From Escherichia phage vB_EcoP-UTI89UKE2: a stretch of DNA of 44,293 nt. The translations under genes were made by a program, and so were the position numbers. The notes beneath the pieces were generated by a model, which was not told where the DNA came from, did not search any database, and was given only the letters and a program-made list of their open reading frames with translations. Of this stretch, positions 988-44,293 are shown one piece after another (positions within the stretch are counted from its first letter, which is position 1; every line of letters starts with the position of its first letter). Location of the stretch: sequence record MZ234049.1; one strand, written 5' to 3'.

Positions 988-3615
988 ATGCAAGACCTAC
1001 ACGCTATTCAACTTCAACTTGAAGAAGAAATGTTTAACGGCGGTATCCGTCGCTTTGAAGCGGACCAACAACGCCAGATTGCATCCGGTAATGAATCAGA
1101 CACGGCATGGAATCGCCGCTTATTGTCCGAGTTAATCGCGCCAATGGCTGAAGGTATTCAGGCATACAAGGAAGAGTATGAAGGTAAAAGAGGCCGTGCA
1201 CCGCGTGCATTAGCTTTCATTAACTGCGTAGAAAACGAAGTGGCAGCATATATCACGATGAAAATCGTTATGGATATGCTGAACACGGATGTAACCTTGC
1301 AGGCTATAGCCATGAATGTAGCTGACCGCATTGAGGACCAAGTACGTTTTAGCAAGCTGGAAGGTCACGCCGCCAAATACTTTGAGAAAGTTAAGAAGTC
1401 ACTTAAGGCAAGTAAGACTAAATCATATCGCCATGCGCACAACGTAGCGGTCGTGGCTGAGAAGTCAGTAGCTGACCGTGACGCTGATTTCTCTCGCTGG
1501 GAGGCGTGGCCTAAAGATACCTTGCTACAAATTGGTATGACCTTGCTAGAAATACTGGAAAATAGTGTATTCTTCAATGGTCAGCCTGTCTTTCTTCGCA
1601 CCTTGCGCACTAATGGTGGCAAGCATGGCGTTTACTACTTACAGACTAGCGAACACGTGGGTGAATGGGTAACTGCATTTAAAGAGCACGTAGCTCAGCT
1701 GAGTCCAGCCTATGCGCCTTGCGTTATTCCTCCTCGTCCGTGGGTTTCTCCGTTTAATGGCGGCTTCCATACTGAGAAAGTAGCAAGCCGTATTCGTCTA
1801 GTAAAAGGCAATCGTGAGCACGTCCGCAAGCTGACCAAAAAGCAAATGCCAGCGGTTTACAAGGCTGTTAACGCTTTGCAGGCGACTAAGTGGCAGGTTA
1901 ATAAAGAGGTTTTGCAGGTAGTAGAGGACGTTATCCGTCTCGATCTTGGTTATGGTGTGCCTTCCTTTAAACCACTCATCGACCGTGAGAACAAGCCAGC
2001 TAATCCAGTGCCGTTAGAGTTCCAGCACCTGCGAGGCCGTGAATTGAAAGAGATGCTAACACCGGAGCAATGGCAGGCCTTCATCAACTGGAAGGGTGAA
2101 TGTACTAAGCTGTATACCGCTGAGACTAAGCGCGGCAGCAAGTCGGCGGCGACCGTCCGCATGGTAGGACAGGCCCGTAAATACAGCCAGTTTGACGCTA
2201 TTTATTTTGTATATGCACTGGATAGCCGTTCACGCGTTTATGCGCAATCTAGCACGCTCTCGCCGCAATCAAACGACTTAGGCAAGGCATTGCTCCGTTT
2301 TACCGAAGGGCAGCGTCTTGATAGCGCTGAGGCGCTTAAGTGGTTTTTGGTGAACGGGGCGAATAACTGGGGTTGGGATAAGAAAACTTTTGACGTGCGC
2401 ACCGCTAACGTGCTGGATAGTGAATTTCAAGACATGTGCCGCGACATTGCAGCGGATCCGCTGACCTTCACTCAATGGGTAAATGCCGACTCCCCTTACG
2501 GCTTCCTTGCATGGTGCTTTGAATATGCGCGTTATCTGGATGCACTGGATGAAGGCACGCAAGACCAATTCATGACGCACCTCCCAGTCCATCAAGATGG
2601 TAGTTGTTCTGGTATCCAGCACTACAGTGCTATGCTACGCGATGCAGTAGGTGCGAAAGCGGTAAACCTTAAGCCCTCTGACTCCCCTCAAGATATTTAT
2701 GGTGCCGTTGCGCAGGTAGTAATTCAGAAGAATTATGCATACATGAATGCAGAGGATGCGGAAACCTTCACTTCTGGCAGCGTGACTTTAACAGGTGCAG
2801 AACTTCGTAGCATGGCTAGTGCGTGGGATATGATAGGAATCACTCGCGGCCTGACCAAAAAGCCTGTAATGACACTACCTTATGGCAGCACACGTCTAAC
2901 CTGCCGTGAATCAGTGATTGATTATATCGTTGATTTGGAAGAAAAAGAGGCCCAACGGGCTATTGCGGAAGGGCGTACCGCCAATCCTGTACATCCTTTT
3001 GATAATGACCGCAAAGACAGCCTGACACCTAGCGCAGCTTATAACTATATGACAGCTTTAATCTGGCCTTCTATTTCGGAAGTGGTTAAAGCTCCTATAG
3101 TGGCAATGAAAATGATTCGTCAGCTTGCACGTTTCGCAGCTAAAAGAAACGAAGGCTTAGAATATCCCTTACCAACTGGCTTCATCTTGCAACAAAAGAT
3201 AATGGCTACCGATATGCTCCGCGTATCCACTTGCTTGATGGGTGAAATCAAGATGAGTCTCCAGATTGAAACAGATGTAGTTGATGAAACGGCAATGATG
3301 GGTGCGGCTGCTCCTAACTTCGTCCATGGTCACGATGCTAGCCACCTGATTCTGACTGTATGTGACCTAGTGGATAAAGGTATTACATCCATTGCAGTCA
3401 TCCATGATTCTTTCGGTACTCATGCAGGACGTACCGCAGACCTGCGGGATAGCTTAAGGGAAGAAATGGTTAAGATGTATCAAAACCATAATGCCCTGCA
3501 AAACCTGCTAGATGTGCACGAAGAGCGTTGGTTAGTAGACACCGGAATCCAAGTACCAGAGCAAGGAGAGTTTGACCTTAACGAAATCTTAGTTTCAGAC
3601 TATTGTTTCGCATAA
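988..3615 (+). CDS. single-subunit DNA-dependent RNA polymerase (T7/SP6 type; closest to SP6 RNAP by recollection)
   Basis: 875-aa ORF with RBS AGGAG at 972-976. Contains the family motifs [27 protein letters not shown] and [12 protein letters not shown], and a C-terminal DYCFA. Length and N-terminus [19 protein letters not shown] match SP6-type RNAP. Confidence 0.95.
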
Positions 3616-40939: not shown

Positions 40940-41100
40940 ATCTTAGTGTACACAAGGGCAGACCTAGGTTTGCTCTTAGTGCCATCAAAGGAGGGTGTAG
41001 GTATGTTATCTTTGTTGTGTATACTCAGTGATGTCCTAGGTCGTAAGAGGTACATTCTTAGTGAAGACCAAATAAGGGACGAGAAGATACGGAGGTCGCT
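40940..41100. repeat. CTTAGT(G) repeat copies to the left of the GC-rich terminal segment
   Basis: CTTAGTG at about 40942, 40975 and 41057; the 17-mer AAGGGCAGACCTAGGTT (40954-40970) also occurs at 3854-3870. Confidence 0.5.
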
Positions 41101-41139
41101 CACAAAGTAACCAAAGTCAAAATTTTGATATAGGCGTGT

Positions 41140-41460
41140 GTGAGGTGTCTCGCCCTCGCCCTCGCCGGATTTCCCCCATATGGGGCCGCGCTGCGGTTGG
41201 CTTGGGAATTGGGCTGGGCTGGTCCGTCTTCGACGGGTGGCCTAGGGCTTGCCGAGGTCTGCTCTTAGTGGCTGCACAAGGAGAACGCCTAGGAAGCGCT
41301 AGGGCACGCCTTAGTATTGGACAAGGTGATTGCCTTAGTGCAATCGCTTAGGGCTTACACAGGGCGTTTTAGGGCCATTCCTGAGCGTTTGACAGGGTGT
41401 GAGGGCGTGGGCTATCTGTTCGTTTCGTTCACTACGCTTGCGCTCCGTTCACTCGCTCAC
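41140..41460. other. GC-rich non-coding segment, probable genome terminus / direct terminal repeat region
   Basis: No credible ORF; CGCCCT x3 and the palindrome CCCCATATGGGG (41174-41185), which resembles the CCCCCATAGGGGG element near the T7 left end; flanked by heptamer repeat arrays as the T7 terminal repeat is flanked by CCTAAAG arrays. Confidence 0.5.
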
Positions 41461-41465
41461 GTGTA

Positions 41466-41595
41466 CCTTAGGTTATTACTTGATGGATAGCTTAGGTTAA
41501 CCTTAGTGGAATGCCTTAGTTAAAGACTTAGTGCTTATCTTAGTAACAGCTTAGTAGTGTACCTTAGTTGGTCTTAGTGAATAGCCTTAGTGATT
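41466..41595. repeat. dense array of about 11 C/T-TTAG-G/T-T/G heptamer repeats at 10-13 bp spacing
   Basis: CCTTAGGTT, GCTTAGGTT, CCTTAGTGG, GCCTTAGTT, ACTTAGTGC, TCTTAGTAA, GCTTAGTAG, CCTTAGTTG, TCTTAGTGA, CCTTAGTGA, with more copies out to 41915. Confidence 0.75.
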
Positions 41596-41788
41596 GCACA
41601 TGCAAGCATGTAAGATGCCAATAGGTCGCGGTCGGTAGACCGCTAAAGAAAGAGAATAGTAATAAGATGCAGTAGGAGGAACACCAGAAACCTAGCCAAC
41701 CTAGCCTATCCTAGCTCTGTATCTATTGCTTTTCCTTAGTCTAACATGTGAGACAACCTAGATTTATCTTAGTGATGATAGCTTAGTG

Positions 41789-41817
41789 TTGACAAGGCCG
41801 TCTCAATGTAATACTAT
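41789..41817 (+). promoter_or_regulatory. candidate host sigma70 early promoter (-35 TTGACA, 17-bp spacer, -10 TACTAT)
   Basis: Hexamer match and spacing; upstream of the first early gene. Confidence 0.4.
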
Positions 41818-41884
41818 TCATCGCGTAGGCAGCACTGAGGTGCTTAGTAGCCAGCTAGTAAGGCATACGAAGAGACTAGCGCTT

Positions 41885-41915
41885 ACATTGCTCTTTAACA
41901 ATTTGCTTAGTGTAA
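41885..41915 (+). promoter_or_regulatory. early leader module 1 containing CTCTTTAACAATTTG
   Basis: First of five copies of a CTCTTTAACAAT-containing element before early genes; the same core is recalled from the T7 gene 0.3 leader (RNase III site R0.3). Confidence 0.45.
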
Positions 41916-41960
41916 CCTATGTATGCCGTGGTTAATTACTTATTGAATGAGGGATTAACT

Positions 41961-42188
41961 ATGAAAGTACAAGTAAAAGCGTACAACATGCCAGTTGATG
42001 AGATTCAGCACTTCCTCGATAAAGGTTATGACTTATGTAAGATGCGCACACCAGATAACTATGATTATTCGCCTAAGTATCTGCACTATATTGATCTTAA
42101 GATGGGTAATAAATTAGTTATAACTGGTACAGCATATAACCGCATTATCAAAACTCTTAAAGAGGGTGCTAATCATGACATTAAATAA
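41961..42188 (+). CDS. early protein (75 aa)
   Basis: RBS GAGGGA then ATG at 41961. Confidence 0.55.
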   Translation: MKVQVKAYNMPVDEIQHFLDKGYDLCKMRTPDNYDYSPKYLHYIDLKMGNKLVITGTAYNRIIKTLKEGANHDIK

Positions 42189-42354
42189 CCGTGAACTGTC
42201 CGTTCTCTTCACCCTGTTATGTTACATGATTCGTAACAACGAATTACTTACAGATGATGAGTTAGCCTTGTATCACCGCTTTCTTAACGAAGGTTGGACC
42301 GATACGGTTAATCAATACCGTAACATGATAGATGAGTTGAGGGAGGGTAAATAA
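42175..42354 (+). CDS. early protein (59 aa)
   Basis: RBS AGAGGG then ATG at 42175; overlaps the upstream gene by 14 nt. Confidence 0.5.
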   Translation: MTLNNRELSVLFTLLCYMIRNNELLTDDELALYHRFLNEGWTDTVNQYRNMIDELREGK

Positions 42355-42578
42355 TGTATCAACATGAGGTATTCTTTGAATCAGCTAGCGAAGCTATTCG
42401 CTTCCACGATGATATGCTACAAACTGGCGTAGGTGTTGATGTACATCACTTCCTACTAGATTACGACACTGAATATCACCGAGTTACCTTAGTATCTGAG
42501 TATGACAACCAAGTCATTACTGAGTATCTAGGTAGTGAAGATTATGATTACGATGAAGTAATCACGACAAATCTCTAA
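42354..42578 (+). CDS. early acidic protein (74 aa)
   Basis: TAATG overlap start; RBS GAGGGAGGG; strongly acidic C-terminal half. Confidence 0.55.
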   Translation: MYQHEVFFESASEAIRFHDDMLQTGVGVDVHHFLLDYDTEYHRVTLVSEYDNQVITEYLGSEDYDYDEVITTNL

Positions 42579-42586
42579 ATTAACTA

Positions 42587-42615
42587 TTGACAACCACGGC
42601 ATACAAGGTTACATT
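42587..42615 (+). promoter_or_regulatory. candidate sigma70 promoter (-35 TTGACA, 17-bp spacer, -10 TACATT)
   Basis: TTGACAAC start resembles the T7 A2/A3 -35 regions. Confidence 0.35.
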
Positions 42616-42644
42616 AAGCATCAAGACGGCGACGTCTTTAAACA

Positions 42645-42665
42645 TCACGCTCTTTAACAATAGAG
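42645..42665 (+). promoter_or_regulatory. early leader module 2 (CGCTCTTTAACAATAGAG)
   Basis: Repeat copy inside a roughly 280-bp non-coding stretch. Confidence 0.4.
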
Positions 42666-42802
42666 ATTAGGCCGGCAGTATCGGTGTGAGGGACAAGGAG
42701 GCTTTCCCACAATTAAACTGGTGGCAAAAGGATTGCCCAGCTTTATAGCCCAGTTATGGATAGCAATAGCGTAAGGATGGCAGCACACCCGCGAGTCTAA
42801 TC

Positions 42803-42850
42803 TCTAGCTCTTTAACAATCTGGCTAGTGCCTTGGTAGGCTAACTACTTA
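42803..42850 (+). promoter_or_regulatory. early leader module 3 (AGCTCTTTAACAATCTGG)
   Basis: About 40 nt upstream of the 70-aa gene. Confidence 0.45.
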
Positions 42851-42862
42851 CTAAGGTGAACT

Positions 42863-43075
42863 ATGAACTACTGCGACATCGCTCACGAATTACGCATGGA
42901 ACGTGAGAAACAAGAAAGGCGGATTATCAAGAAGATGGCTGTACTGCTTGCACACTATAAGGCAGACAAACAGCCAACACATGATGAGTTCGTGGACTTC
43001 TGTAACATGTATCTTAATGTGAGTAAGGCCACTGGTTACAGATGGCTTAAAGCACTGAATGATGGAGAATTGTAG
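42863..43075 (+). CDS. early protein (70 aa), possible helix-turn-helix
   Basis: RBS AAGGTG; C-terminal VSKATGYRWLKAL resembles an HTH recognition helix. Confidence 0.55.
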   Translation: MNYCDIAHELRMEREKQERRIIKKMAVLLAHYKADKQPTHDEFVDFCNMYLNVSKATGYRWLKALNDGEL

Positions 43076-43078
43076 CAA

Positions 43079-43165
43079 TAAGCCAGCTTAATAGCTGGCC
43101 TATCAAGGCACTAACCTAGCCCTTTAACAATCTGGTTTGTGTCTTGATAGGCTTACTAACAGAAA
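43079..43165 (+). promoter_or_regulatory. early leader module 4: hairpin GCCAGCTTAATAGCTGGC, then CCTATCAAGGCAC ... CCCTTTAACAATCTGG ... GTGTCTTGATAGG
   Basis: Long imperfect stem enclosing the conserved core; structure typical of RNase III processing sites. Confidence 0.5.
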
Positions 43166-43176
43166 GGTAAATTATC

Positions 43177-43344
43177 ATGGAAACTTTAATCGTTACCACT
43201 ACAATCAACGGCGTAAGTATCAGCATAACTAAGTATTCTTCCGAAGAGTATGAAGTGAATCACGGAATAGCTGCTATGGTGTATGACAACTTGGCAGATG
43301 CCGTGGAGCATTGGATACAGTCATGTAAGGCTGCAATTAAGTAG
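43177..43344 (+). CDS. early protein (55 aa)
   Basis: RBS AGAAAGG then ATG at 43177; TAG at 43342-43344. Under 60 aa, so absent from the ORF track. Confidence 0.45.
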   Translation: METLIVTTTINGVSISITKYSSEEYEVNHGIAAMVYDNLADAVEHWIQSCKAAIK

Positions 43345-43460
43345 GAAAGATAAGGCTGGCACTAGCCAGCCTATCAAGGCACAAGCCACGCTCTTTAACA
43401 ATATGGGTAGTCGCTTCTTAGTCTGGATAGGTTAAACCTAGGAGATTCTCTTGAGTCTCC
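43345..43460 (+). promoter_or_regulatory. early leader module 5: hairpin GGCTGGCACTAGCCAGCC, CGCTCTTTAACAATATGG, and hairpin GGAGATTCTCTTGAGTCTCC before ocr
   Basis: Same arrangement as module 4; a perfect TATAAT sits at 43461-43466. Confidence 0.5.
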
Positions 43461-43498
43461 TATAATGTAACCTAACTAACTAAATGAGGATTAATAAC

Positions 43499-43852
43499 AT
43501 GGCTATGTCTAATATGACTTACTCTCAGGTTTACAACACCGCTCATGCTGCATTAGTTGAACGTGTCTGGGATGATGCTATTGATTGTATCGATAACGCA
43601 CATGATGCAATCCATGAGGTGGCGGATAGTGCTGTACCAATCTATTATGCTGACATCTTCTCGGTGATGGCCAGTGAAGGAATCGACCACTTCTTCGAGG
43701 ATTCTGGCTTAATGCCAGACACTAAGGATGTGACTGTCGTACTACAAGCCCGTATTTATGAACAACTCACCATTGATTTATGGGAACGTGTTCAAGATAT
43801 GATTGATGAGTACATCGATTCCGCTGAGGATTCAGAAGAAGAGGAAGAATAA
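43499..43852 (+). CDS. ocr: Ocr-like DNA-mimic anti-restriction protein (T7 gene 0.3 homologue)
   Basis: MAMSNMTY ... [13 protein letters not shown] ... [11 protein letters not shown] ... [14 protein letters not shown] and an acidic C-terminus closely follow T7 Ocr as recalled. RBS GAGGA; the track start at 43484 is an extension. Confidence 0.85.
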
Positions 43853-43854
43853 GG

Positions 43855-43968
43855 ATGGAAAAGCAATATAACTTTATCTTTTCAGACGGTGTAACCCTGA
43901 AGTGTTCCCTACGATTCGCTCAGATTCGTGAGGAAGTGCTAGGTACTACATACAAACTATTTAGCTGA
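43855..43968 (+). CDS. small early ORF (37 aa)
   Basis: ATG 3 nt after the ocr stop; TGA at 43966-43968. Confidence 0.35.
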   Translation: MEKQYNFIFSDGVTLKCSLRFAQIREEVLGTTYKLFS

Positions 43969-43983
43969 CACTATAAGAGAAGG
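43962..43983 (+). promoter_or_regulatory. degenerate phage promoter-like sequence (TAGCTGACACTATAAGAGAAGG)
   Basis: Core CACTATA retained but downstream AGAGAAG instead of GAAG; may be the weak first phage promoter. Confidence 0.3.
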
Positions 43984-44044
43984 CTTAACAAGGCGTTGCT
44001 ACGGTAGCGCCTGATTAAACTTTCACTTACTAGGAGTTGAGATT

Positions 44045-44230
44045 ATGAAAACCTTGATTGGATGCTTCTTGTTGGCTTCTCTTGCTCTGGCATTTACCGC
44101 TAAAGCTGGTTATGACGCTTATAAAGTAGAACAAGCCCAGCAAGACTGGGCCAAAAAGTTCAACTTGTGTAGCAAGAGCAACACCTACGAGTATTGCAAC
44201 AAAACACTAAGACACTTATGGAAAGAGTAA
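44045..44230 (+). CDS. small secreted protein (61 aa) with N-terminal signal peptide
   Basis: RBS AGGAG; MKTLIGCFLLASLALAFTAKA is a signal-peptide-like N-terminus with AKA cleavage motif; mature part has two Cys. Confidence 0.55.
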   Translation: MKTLIGCFLLASLALAFTAKAGYDAYKVEQAQQDWAKKFNLCSKSNTYEYCNKTLRHLWKE

Positions 44231-44264
44231 CTAGCCTATAGCCTACCTGAGTGGGCTATGTGAT

Positions 44265-44287
44265 ATTTACTTACACTATATAAGGTG
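44265..44287 (+). promoter_or_regulatory. degenerate promoter-like sequence (ATTTACTTACACTATATAAGGTG) at the window end, upstream of the ORF starting at position 1
   Basis: Partial match to the phage promoter consensus; its 3' end provides the AAGGTG RBS for the position-1 ATG if the record is circular. Confidence 0.3.
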
Positions 44288-44293
44288 ATTACT

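Follow-up and report, generated by a model that had tools for sequence, protein, structure and literature searches.

In E. coli, the boxA of the rrn operons is the nascent-RNA site for the NusB/NusE(S10) dimer, which nucleates the Nus/SuhB antitermination complex on RNA polymerase. The combination of an rrn-type boxA with leader-trailer helices is regarded as a ribosome-making device, and an rrn-type boxA is also found in CRISPR arrays, which are non-coding. Among phages, the PeSL cassettes of the T4 type, composed of an early promoter and a stem-loop, flank small variable early genes. The helices formed between rrn leaders and trailers are cut by RNase III, and it has been proposed that the boxA tether brings the leader strand to the trailer; in Enterobacteriaceae, the 16S leader-trailer helix is 25-40 bp long (PMC10250234). 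The boxA consensus published for gamma-proteobacteria is GYTCTTTAANA, and boxA elements on bacterial mRNAs, such as that in the suhB 5' UTR, control Rho termination or translation (PMC5725501). A full-text search of the literature on the early regions of T7-, SP6- and K1-5-type phages found neither boxA nor gene-bracketing helices; they could still be mentioned in the SP6 genome paper, the K1-5/SP6 paper in J Mol Biol or reviews on T7.

An array of rrn-type boxA elements

The window analysed is the whole 44,293-nt stretch of record MZ234049.1 (Escherichia phage vB_EcoP-UTI89UKE2). The region considered here is the left end of a K1E/SP6-like phage, in which all copies of the motif lie in non-coding gaps, on the + strand. 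An earlier note on this DNA had claimed that five copies of a core sequence punctuate the early operon, and all five were located, four of them exact and one with a single mismatch. GCTCTTTAACAAT is exact at 41890, 42649, 42807 and 43390 and has one mismatch at 43119. Likewise, CTCTTTAACAAT is exact at 41891, 42650, 42808 and 43391, with the one-mismatch form CCCTTTAACAAT at 43120, and the nearby sequence contains no further match to it with 0 or 1 mismatches.

When both strands of the 44.3 kb were scanned with GYTCTTTAANA, exactly four perfect matches were obtained, all within 41890-43400 and on the + strand, for a chance expectation of about 0.2 computed from the information content of the pattern. 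These are boxA-1 (GCTCTTTAACA, 41890-41900), boxA-2 (42649-42659, about 27 nt past the start predicted for P2), boxA-3 (42807-42817) and boxA-5 (43390-43400), the position of which matches that of the single boxA found before gene 0.3 in T7 and T3. boxA-4 (43119-43129) is the variant GCCCTTTAACA, with a T to C change at position 3, a fixed position of the consensus; it is possibly a weaker element. The identity with the host extends beyond the consensus: TGCTCTTTAACAATTT, at 41889-41904, is identical across 16 nt to the leader boxA of E. coli rrnH; copies 3 and 4, like the T7 and T3 sequences, have the tail ATCTGG, as does the boxA of the 16S-23S spacer. Judged by its sequence, the repeated core is the host rrn-type boxA, known as the NusB/NusE site; its identity, strand and position are established.

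All the copies are downstream of, and on the same (+) strand as, two predicted sigma-70 promoters. P1 (TTGACA-17-TACTAT, 41789-41817) agrees with the consensus at 10 of 12 positions and, by virtue of this match, is the predicted start of the host-RNAP early transcript. P2 (TTGACA-17-TACATT, 42587-42615) overlaps the 3' strand of helix B (see below). The promoter search found the first phage-type promoter at 43962, downstream of every boxA copy, and the phage RNAP gene is at 988-3615. As far as these predicted promoters indicate, the boxA array sits in the sole part of the genome that is transcribed only by the host polymerase.

In public records, the boxA and helix elements are unannotated or overlain by spurious ORFs, and the annotated records of T7, T3, 13a, phiA1122, SP6, K1-5, K1E and K30 show no feature at the motif. 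An Rfam search of positions 41400-44293 at a permissive threshold returned nothing relevant; its sole match, mir-5879, was discarded as a chance match to the palindrome at 43968-44039.

Helices that bracket the early genes

The copies had been described as usually embedded in long stems and preceded by small perfect hairpins. The hairpins are present before copy 2 (AAGACG-GCGA-CGTCTT, 42623-42638, 10 nt upstream of boxA-2), copy 4 (CCAGCU-UAAU-AGCUGG, 43083-43098) and copy 5 (GGCUGGC-ACUA-GCCAGCC, 43354-43371), the latter two being conserved and abutting the 3' strands of the helices of cassettes 3 and 4, respectively. As to the stems, the one that CCTATCAAGGCAC and GTGTCTTGATAGG form around copy 4 is real and well folded (z = -4.4), and copy 5 has a weaker one (z = -3.4), but the folds predicted for copies 1 to 3 (z = -1.5, -1.1 and +0.8) are no better than those of shuffled sequence. 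Local long stems are thus confined to copy 4 and, weakly, copy 5, and the view that each copy is a local hairpin had to be abandoned.

The stems are in fact mostly long-range. The arm lying just 3' of one boxA pairs with the arm lying just 5' of the next, enclosing the gene or genes in between, and the spacing between boxA and the 5' strand of an RNA helix is 1-25 nt for every copy. Where a phage has a single cassette (Kosakonia Kc166A, K30, CB5, phD2B, PM85 and SP6), the post-boxA arm has no local partner and finds one only on the far, downstream side of the next gene. Each arm has one unique partner, located downstream, in 8 of the 8 SP6-like and K30-like phages of the panel. The helices of copies 1, 3 and 4 bracket their cargo as rRNA leader and trailer do, since their 3' strands come after the next gene or block of genes. 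For the arm that follows copy 5, and for the arms that follow the last boxA in all panel phages, no long-range partner stood above background; this last boxA precedes a local R0.3-like hairpin, as copy 5 does.

Helix B, about 29 bp long, joins 41905-41933 to 42592-42619 (+ strand) around the three small genes that form the cargo of cassette 1 (41961-42188, 42175-42354 and 42354-42578, all +) and belong to PHROGs without assigned function. Its 5' strand has a unique partner (-48 kcal/mol, versus -29 for the next best), and, when the 781-nt transcript is folded (z = -8.7), the helix is present in the MFE and centroid structures alike. Cassette 2 (42661-42806, +) consists of a 12-bp stem, 42661-42672 with 42795-42806, that closes a non-coding insert of about 120 nt abutted by a boxA at either end; it is found in only 8 Vectrevirus records and is absent from K1E (AM084415). 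Copy 2 does lie, as the earlier note had it, in a non-coding stretch, a gap of 284 nt (42579-42862). Cassettes 3 and 4 each have a class A helix on the + strand: 42822-42840 with 43098-43116 around a 70-aa ORF (42863-43075, +, phrog_26099), and 43134-43152 with 43369-43387 around a 55-aa ORF (43177-43344, +).

The 3' strand of cassette 3 has an alternative local partner at 43134-43152. The helix of this cassette forms when the transcript ends at 43118, and the equilibrium fold of 42800-43410 adopts a nested topology, with the copy-4 local hairpin and boxA-4 in its loop. For cassettes 3 and 4 together, the nested, unconstrained fold (-188.0 kcal/mol) is favoured by about 4.5 kcal/mol over the forced bracket topology (-183.5 kcal/mol). 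The copy-4 local hairpin is a near-isoenergetic alternative that arises here only because two like cassettes stand in tandem.

The helices, their covariation and their signature at the RNA level are established from a sample of about 20 phages and contigs. In class B (29 pairs), 96.4% of the cells are paired, versus 25-40% in shifted registers, and 15 of the 29 pairs show compensatory double changes. In class A (18 pairs), the corresponding values are 96.1%, 29-42% and 9 of 18, most of the "not paired" cells being explained by alignment A1, in which a 1-2 nt deletion in the 5' arm throws three sequences out of register over the distal 4-6 pairs. The observed values were reached in 0 of 500 shuffles for either class. 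G.U cells outnumber A.C cells by 18:0 in the class A core and by 19:7 in class B. This tolerance of G.U, with A.C essentially excluded from the class A core, indicates that selection acts on the + strand RNA, and a purely DNA-level inverted repeat was rejected on the strength of this asymmetry; the hairpins also make use of G.U (SP6, L012). The class B helix falls within the 25-40 bp range of the 16S leader-trailer helices, while that of class A, at 18-19 bp, falls short of it, barring coaxial stacking of the 6-7 bp hairpin next to it. boxA is unpaired in the full-length folds as in the structures supported by covariation; some MFE folds pair it locally, but weakly, over 4 bp.

The conserved frame has the following order: boxA, arm, stop codons and Shine-Dalgarno sequence, cargo, stop cluster, hairpin, arm. 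The cargo ORFs differ while the frames stay conserved, with at least 14 unrelated cargo proteins and one empty cassette; one cargo family occurs in both class A and class B frames, and the frame of the SP6-like phages is also that of K30 and Kc166A, which belong to the T7-like subfamily. In CB5-type phages, no boxA follows the class A cassette. In its layout, the first operon of the phage resembles a small-scale rRNA operon, in the order boxA, leader strand, cargo, trailer strand.

Beyond copy 5 is a two-stem local hairpin (43409-43492, +, upper stem 43439-43462), the counterpart of R0.3, whose base covers the Shine-Dalgarno sequence of ocr. The z-score of this R0.3-like hairpin is -3.6, compared to -3.8 in K1-5, -5.2 in SP6 and -3.7 for the annotated R0.3 of T3. 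The first gene past the boxA array is ocr (43499-43852, +; phrog_2568, E = 2.7e-49), which encodes a gene 0.3-like anti-restriction protein. The distance of 40-95 nt announced between motif and start codon holds for copies 1, 3 and 4 (71, 56 and 58 nt from the motif start) but not for copy 5 (109 nt).

Proposed functions of boxA and of the helices

The core had been placed in the T7 gene 0.3 leader as well and taken for an RNase III element. The first point was right: T7 has an exact GCTCTTTAACAAT at 813-825, past promoter A3 and ahead of gene 0.3, with no other good match in its first 6.5 kb. The second does not stand. The core is the rrn boxA and is unpaired; the T3 boxA (781-791) is 30 nt upstream of the annotated RNase III site R0.3 (822-875), which excludes it; T3 sites R0.5 and R1 have no boxA-like motif; and in the T7-like phage 13a, an inserted gene stands between two copies of an R0.3-type hairpin, boxA remaining single. 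Nowhere among these sites is the CTCTTTAACAAT core part of a T7-type RNase III site. In our phage, the shape of such a site (intergenic, with an upper and a lower stem and an internal loop) is found only at 43409-43492, the copy-5 hairpin, which aligns with the annotated R0.3 of T3; the motif modules of copies 1 to 3 lack it. boxA is separable from the RNase III hairpins. It is still plausible that RNase III-type duplexes punctuate the early operon.

The explanation that we favour as probable is that rrn-type boxA elements and cargo-bracketing helices act together, through Nus loading and RNase III excision of the early mRNAs. By analogy with the rrn operons, we infer NusB/E binding, antitermination or a speed-up of transcription, and cleavage by RNase III. 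Each boxA would load, or re-load, Nus factors on the host RNAP, making it faster and Rho-resistant across untranslated leaders; this would matter, as access to the phage's own RNAP gene is thought to depend on transcription by the host. As has been proposed for rrn, the 5' strand may also be kept at the RNA exit channel by the tethered boxA until the 3' strand appears. RNase III would then cut the 19-30 bp helices, yielding single-cassette mRNAs with paired ends, and the cut would detach boxA from the ribosome-binding site.

The shortness of the class A helices, the change at a fixed consensus position in copy 4 and the nested equilibrium fold of cassettes 3 and 4 count against this explanation. 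A fresh boxA after each cut is not obligatory, because T7, T3 and 13a have one boxA and many RNase III sites; these phages, together with those of the CB5 type, weaken the idea that every RNase III-type helix needs a new boxA behind it. T7 deletions that span the 0.3 leader are viable, and the function of boxA is therefore probably non-essential in laboratory hosts.

A bolder version, possible but distinctly more tentative, sees the left-end operon of SP6-like and K30-like phages as a true modular mimic of the rRNA operon, with the frame as a portable slot for early genes. A Nus/SuhB complex would assemble at each boxA, shield the transcript from Rho, speed up elongation and retain the neighbouring 5' arm at the exit channel until the 3' arm appears, and RNase III would excise each small ORF as a paired-end mRNA. 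The exchanged early genes would probably serve host take-over or anti-defence, and the released boxA fragments might also act as a sponge for NusB/E.

boxA might instead be mainly a Nus-dependent repressor of the next gene, acting on translation or through Rho as in the suhB 5' UTR, and setting its level or timing instead of favouring read-through. The 45-60 nt that separate boxA from the start codon for copies 1, 3 and 4 are near the window of <=50 nt for regulatory mRNA boxA elements, and boxA elements located farther away can also regulate (PMC5725501). Nevertheless, the architecture here is rrn-like, not suhB-like, repression of the phage's very first genes is hard to rationalise, and boxA is probably uncoupled from the ribosome-binding site, since in the modelled structures a helix, itself probably cleaved, stands between the two. 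We regard this explanation as unlikely.

It is less likely again that the elements are decoys, with up to five boxA per abundant early transcript, set free on small fragments by processing, titrating NusB/NusE away from the host rrn operons and so aiding host shut-off. Multiple exact copies behind strong consensus-like promoters would suit such a role, as would the stable hairpin that tandem arms can form, with boxA exposed in the loop, but the proposal is purely speculative and T7 and T3 have one copy.

The conserved frame with variable cargo, common to K30/Kc166A and SP6-like phages, would also be expected if the frames were chiefly DNA-level recombination modules for the swapping of early genes, comparable to the T4-type cassettes, and the helices and boxA had no function as RNA. 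This is very improbable: the compensatory changes keep pairing rather than sequence, with G.U tolerated and A.C essentially excluded in the class A core, and boxA matches the host consensus exactly across genera. It is more likely that the repeats bring about cargo shuffling as a side effect. Least probable of all is that the CTCTTTAACAAT module itself is the core of local-hairpin RNase III sites cutting the early polycistronic RNA, for although copy 4, also in the equilibrium fold, and weakly copy 5 form stems around the motif, and the T7 motif is near R0.3, the motif is an exact rrn boxA that lies in a loop or unpaired and never within a duplex, the local folds of copies 1 to 3 are not significant, in single-cassette phages a local partner is altogether lacking, and the RNase III sites of T3 and 13a do without it.

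If the favoured explanation, Nus loading at boxA with excision of the cassettes, is true, the whole rrn layout, up to the next boxA, has been turned to the expression of protein-coding early genes by virulent enterobacterial phages of a widespread group. It would provide a small, genetically tractable system (cargo of 170-700 nt, versus 1.5-2.9 kb) and a testbed for the proposed boxA-tether delivery of the leader to the trailer, which would couple antitermination to RNase III processing. It would also give a rationale for fast, Rho-proof host transcription in the vulnerable first minutes of infection. boxA and paired arms would mark interchangeable early-gene slots beside ocr, a signature that would help find new host-takeover or anti-defence genes. 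Annotation is also corrected for elements so far unannotated or masked by spurious ORFs.

Comparison with rrn operons and other systems

The E. coli rrn operons, whose antitermination and processing system comprises boxA with boxB/boxC, the rrnTAC and the leader-trailer helices cut by RNase III, are a close counterpart. The boxA sequence is identical, flanks included; it stands just past a sigma-70 promoter and again before the next cargo; a small hairpin precedes it in several phage units; and a long covarying helix starts right after it and finds its partner just past the cargo, as in rrnH, where the leader strand directly follows boxA and its partner is just 3' of 16S. The differences are that the phage cargo consists of small protein-coding genes with their own ribosome-binding sites rather than rRNA, that the class A helices are shorter (18-19 bp plus the abutting hairpin), that up to five units are packed in 1.6 kb, and that boxC is represented by a mere weak resemblance to UGUGU. 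The phage helix works like a leader-trailer helix without being a member of the rrn family, because its cargo is small ORFs with Shine-Dalgarno sequences.

The boxA elements of the suhB 5' UTR and of CRISPR arrays are likewise of the rrn type and used outside rRNA, but they are single elements without gene-bracketing helices and do not come from virulent phage genomes. With the nut sites of lambda, the present locus shares a phage boxA and, as proposed here, the use of host Nus factors for processive antitermination of early transcripts. However, the hairpin is here 5' of boxA, the rrn order, with no boxB 3' of it, and boxA is the full rrn consensus, not the lambda variant. No N-like antiterminator family was recognised among the eight early ORFs, a weak test given that their PHROGs are unassigned or ocr. 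The PeSL cassettes of T4-type phages resemble our cassettes as repeated regulatory modules around small variable early genes, with cargo apparently swapped; they differ in sequence and logic, the module here being a boxA with paired arms around an ORF.

Another close counterpart is the gene 0.3 leader of T7 and T3. There, boxA is followed by about 100 nt containing a two-stem hairpin and then by gene 0.3, and copy 5, its hairpin and ocr reproduce this order and spacing; in both cases, the motif is carried on the host-RNAP early transcript. T7 and T3 have a single boxA and local hairpins only, and their other RNase III sites are without boxA, whereas the phage group described here adds, upstream, long-range helices that bracket the early genes.

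The motif and its place in the early operon

The motif CTCTTTAACAAT, reported in the earlier note, recurs exactly at 41891, 42650, 42808 and 43391, and with one mismatch at 43120. The functional gamma-proteobacterial boxA consensus is GYTCTTTAANA (PMC5725501). When both strands of the whole window are scanned, this consensus has four exact matches, all of them copies of the motif, and copy 4 departs from it at one fixed position. In E. coli MG1655, the boxA regions of rrnH are TGCTCTTTAACAATTTATCAG in the leader and GCTCTTTAAAAATCTGGAT in the 16S-23S spacer. Copy 1 (TGCTCTTTAACAATTT) is identical to the leader over 16 nt, and copies 3 and 4, like T7 and T3, share the ATCTGG tail of the spacer. 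Because of these consensus matches and rrnH identities, the motif is, by sequence, a boxA of the host NusB/NusE type and not an RNase III determinant. The last boxA of K1E AM084415 (L004), at ~2245, reads GCTCTTTTAACAAT, one T more than the consensus and the window; either the sequence is in error there or this copy is inactivated.

Sequence comparison places the window at 100% identity with Escherichia phage vB_EcoP-UTI89UKE3, which belongs to Vectrevirus in the K1E/K1-5/SP6 group. Because of circular permutation of the record, the genomic left end corresponds to 41500-44293. Two sigma-70 promoters are predicted on the + strand, both strong matches: P1 (41789-41817) and P2 (TTGACA-17-TACATT, 42587-42615). 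Since the first phage-type (SP6-like) promoters, recognized by sequence match at 43962 and 44267 (+), and the phage RNA polymerase gene (988-3615, past the wrap-around) come later, the boxA array lies, on this predicted map, in the first ~1.6 kb of a stretch that only the host RNA polymerase can transcribe. Its genes are small ORFs without assigned function, followed by ocr, the gene 0.3-like ORF. Two other roles for the copies were considered, as suhB-like repressors and as a decoy for NusB/E.

Other features lie near the array. The + strand of 40942-41911 has 19 copies of CTTAGT, most densely at 41502-41591 (8 copies, period ~12 nt), and the whole window has 55, against 29 expected; this is probably a short-repeat array adjoining the terminal repeat, as in T7. 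A palindromic hairpin (43968-44039) lies immediately 3' of the phage-type promoter at 43962; on both strands it matches mir-5879 weakly, at chance level (E = 0.03 and 0.27). Just 5' of the promoter at 44267, a hairpin resembling a terminator, with a T-rich tail (44237-44260), may be the end of the host-polymerase early unit, or an attenuator.

Gene-bracketing helices

The boxA flanks were compared in SP6, K1-5, K1E, Pectobacterium CB5, Lelliottia phD2B, Proteus PM85, Kosakonia Kc166A and K30. Across this panel, the arms directly after one boxA and directly before the next are complementary, with a gene between them. Duplex searches gave one standout partner per arm, always 3' of the cargo, with energies from -35 to -54 kcal/mol where the background was -25 to -30 kcal/mol. 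We call the unit of boxA, 5' arm, cargo gene(s) and 3' arm a cassette; its helix is of one of two types, class A or class B. Helix B of cassette 1 (~29 bp, -48 kcal/mol) pairs 41905-41933 with 42592-42619 around a three-gene block (41961-42578). Class A helices of ~19 bp enclose one gene each in cassette 3 (42822-42840 with 43098-43116; gene 42863-43075) and cassette 4 (43134-43152 with 43369-43387; gene 43177-43344). The spacer and -10 element of P2 form the 3' strand of helix B (42587-42619 region), the same bases being both a DNA promoter and an RNA helix strand, and this overlap is kept in SP6, K1-5, K1E, phD2B, PM85 and several IMG/VR contigs.

After copy 2, a 12-bp stem (42661-42672 with 42795-42806) closes a ~120-nt non-coding insert that ends exactly at copy 3. 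With its stem, the insert (42661-42806) measures 146 nt, lies between boxA-2 and boxA-3 with a boxA at both ends, and is found only in 8 Vectrevirus records, K1E AM084415 being without it. Shuffled sequences fold about as well overall as the insert (z = -0.84). The insert could represent a cassette whose cargo is non-coding or has decayed; alternatively, a small mobile element could have entered boxA.

The earlier note had the motif usually embedded in local flanking stems. These exist at copy 4 (CCTATCAAGGCAC/GTGTCTTGATAGG arms, strong fold, z = -4.4) and, in degraded form, at copy 5 (z = -3.4), but the local folds of copies 1-3 are no better than shuffles. Helix B is present in both the MFE and centroid folds of a 781-nt transcript (z = -8.7). 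In the tandem cassettes 3 and 4, whose four arms are near-identical, the equilibrium fold is nested, with an outer 3-4' helix and a local hairpin holding boxA-4 in its loop, the structure seen in that note; it reaches -188.0 kcal/mol versus -183.5 when each gene is bracketed. The gene-bracketing helix is predicted to form in a transcript ending at 43118, where the next arm is absent, and where a phage has just one class A cassette, no local pairing is possible. From helix B, the truncated transcript and the single-cassette phages, we conclude that the bracket is the conserved structure and the local hairpin a secondary alternative. Both topologies put a ~19-bp duplex on each side of every gene.

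With extra loci from IMG/VR, 39 distinct cassettes were gathered. Of the cells in the class A alignment (20 sequences, 18 pairs), 96.1% are paired, where shifted registers give 29-42%, and 9 of the 18 pairs have both-side changes (26 cells); class B (11 sequences, 29 pairs) has 96.4% against 25-40%, with both-side changes at 15 of 29 (28 cells). In neither class did any of 500 shuffles score as high. G.U occurs often in the helices and at some positions outnumbers every other pair, whereas the class A core has no A.C (G.U:A.C cells, 18:0) and class B has little (19:7), which shows that selection acts on the + strand RNA and not on a DNA palindrome. In each of the 23 class A cassettes examined, a hairpin of 6-7 bp directly adjoins the 3' strand; covariation extends to its stem, which has G.U pairs in SP6, K1-5 and L012.

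Modular frames and the RNase III sites of T7-like phages

The cargo of class A frames comprises at least 14 unrelated proteins (36-88 aa). One cargo family, in a class A frame in the window, has a class B frame around it in L032 and L040. The frame 5' UTR (GGCTNACTAAC...AAGGT...ATCATG) is independent of cargo, and a multi-frame stop-codon cluster (TAGATAG or TAAGGTAA) stands just 5' of the hairpin whatever protein is encoded (class A cassettes of L002-L042 and window 42841-42862, 43153-43176, 43345-43353). The frame is also found in K30 and Kc166A, members of the T7-like subfamily. That the frames are a DNA-level shuffling module was likewise considered. One class A frame, in L040 (- strand, boxA at 2508), is empty; its arms are only ~36 nt apart and make a local hairpin right after boxA. 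Such a frame may be a step between helices that bracket genes and local sites of the T7 type. CB5-type phages (L005 ~990-1010; L020, L026, L038) have no boxA after the class A 3' arm; a conserved GAGAGTTAAGAG motif comes there instead, then a new TTGACA promoter. Read on the other strand, as CTCTTAACTCTC, this motif is loosely similar to a lambda-type boxA.

The earlier note took the motif copies for a set of RNase III processing sites and placed the same core in the T7 gene 0.3 leader. T7 does carry it there (GCTCTTTAACAAT at T7 813-825, between promoter A3 and gene 0.3), but several direct tests contradict the motif as an RNase III core. Among the sites annotated in the T3 record, R0.3 (822-875) excludes T3's only boxA (781-791), and R0.5 (1359-1408) and R1 (2908-2956) have none. 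In the T7-like phage 13a (L045, 836-1215), an R0.3-type hairpin (aactcaagggtatcgcaaggtgccct...) stands on either side of the inserted gene 0.45, and the single boxA is upstream of this duplicated frame, the second hairpin having none. The 13a layout suggests that T7-like phages insert genes through recombination at RNase III hairpins.

Copy 5 had no long-range partner in the duplex searches. The sequence downstream of it aligns with the boxA-to-gene 0.3 sequence of T7 and T3, and a two-stem hairpin there (43409-43492, z = -3.6), whose base covers the ocr Shine-Dalgarno, has the same shape as T3's annotated R0.3. By alignment with T7, where we take the R0.3 cut to be at nt 890, RNase III would cleave this hairpin near 43463-43467. 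A minus-strand match to the phage-promoter consensus (2 mismatches, 43457-43474) over the hairpin is probably a by-product of its symmetry.

Comparison with rrn operons

boxA/Nus antitermination, leader-trailer helices and the T7 early RNase III sites are already known, and the single T7 boxA may well have appeared in earlier work. In these phages, a coupling of boxA arrays to gene-bracketing helices is described neither in the literature covered, which did not include the SP6 and K1-5 genome papers, nor in 8 annotated phage records. For the antitermination complex to form, boxA is both necessary and sufficient; in its lambda counterpart, RNA polymerase modified by N is Rho-resistant, with an elongation rate about twice that of the unmodified enzyme; leader-trailer helices are cut by RNase III, and it has been proposed that a boxA tether brings the leader strand to the trailer (PMC10250234). 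The best reading, which we infer by analogy, is that the host Nus/RNase III machinery of rrn would be used on the phage early operon, the outcome being fast, Rho-proof transcription with cassette-by-cassette processing. An rrn operon has its elements in the phage order of promoter, (hairpin), boxA, 5' strand, cargo, 3' strand and boxA; the rrnH leader strand immediately follows boxA and has its pairing partner just beyond the 3' end of 16S.
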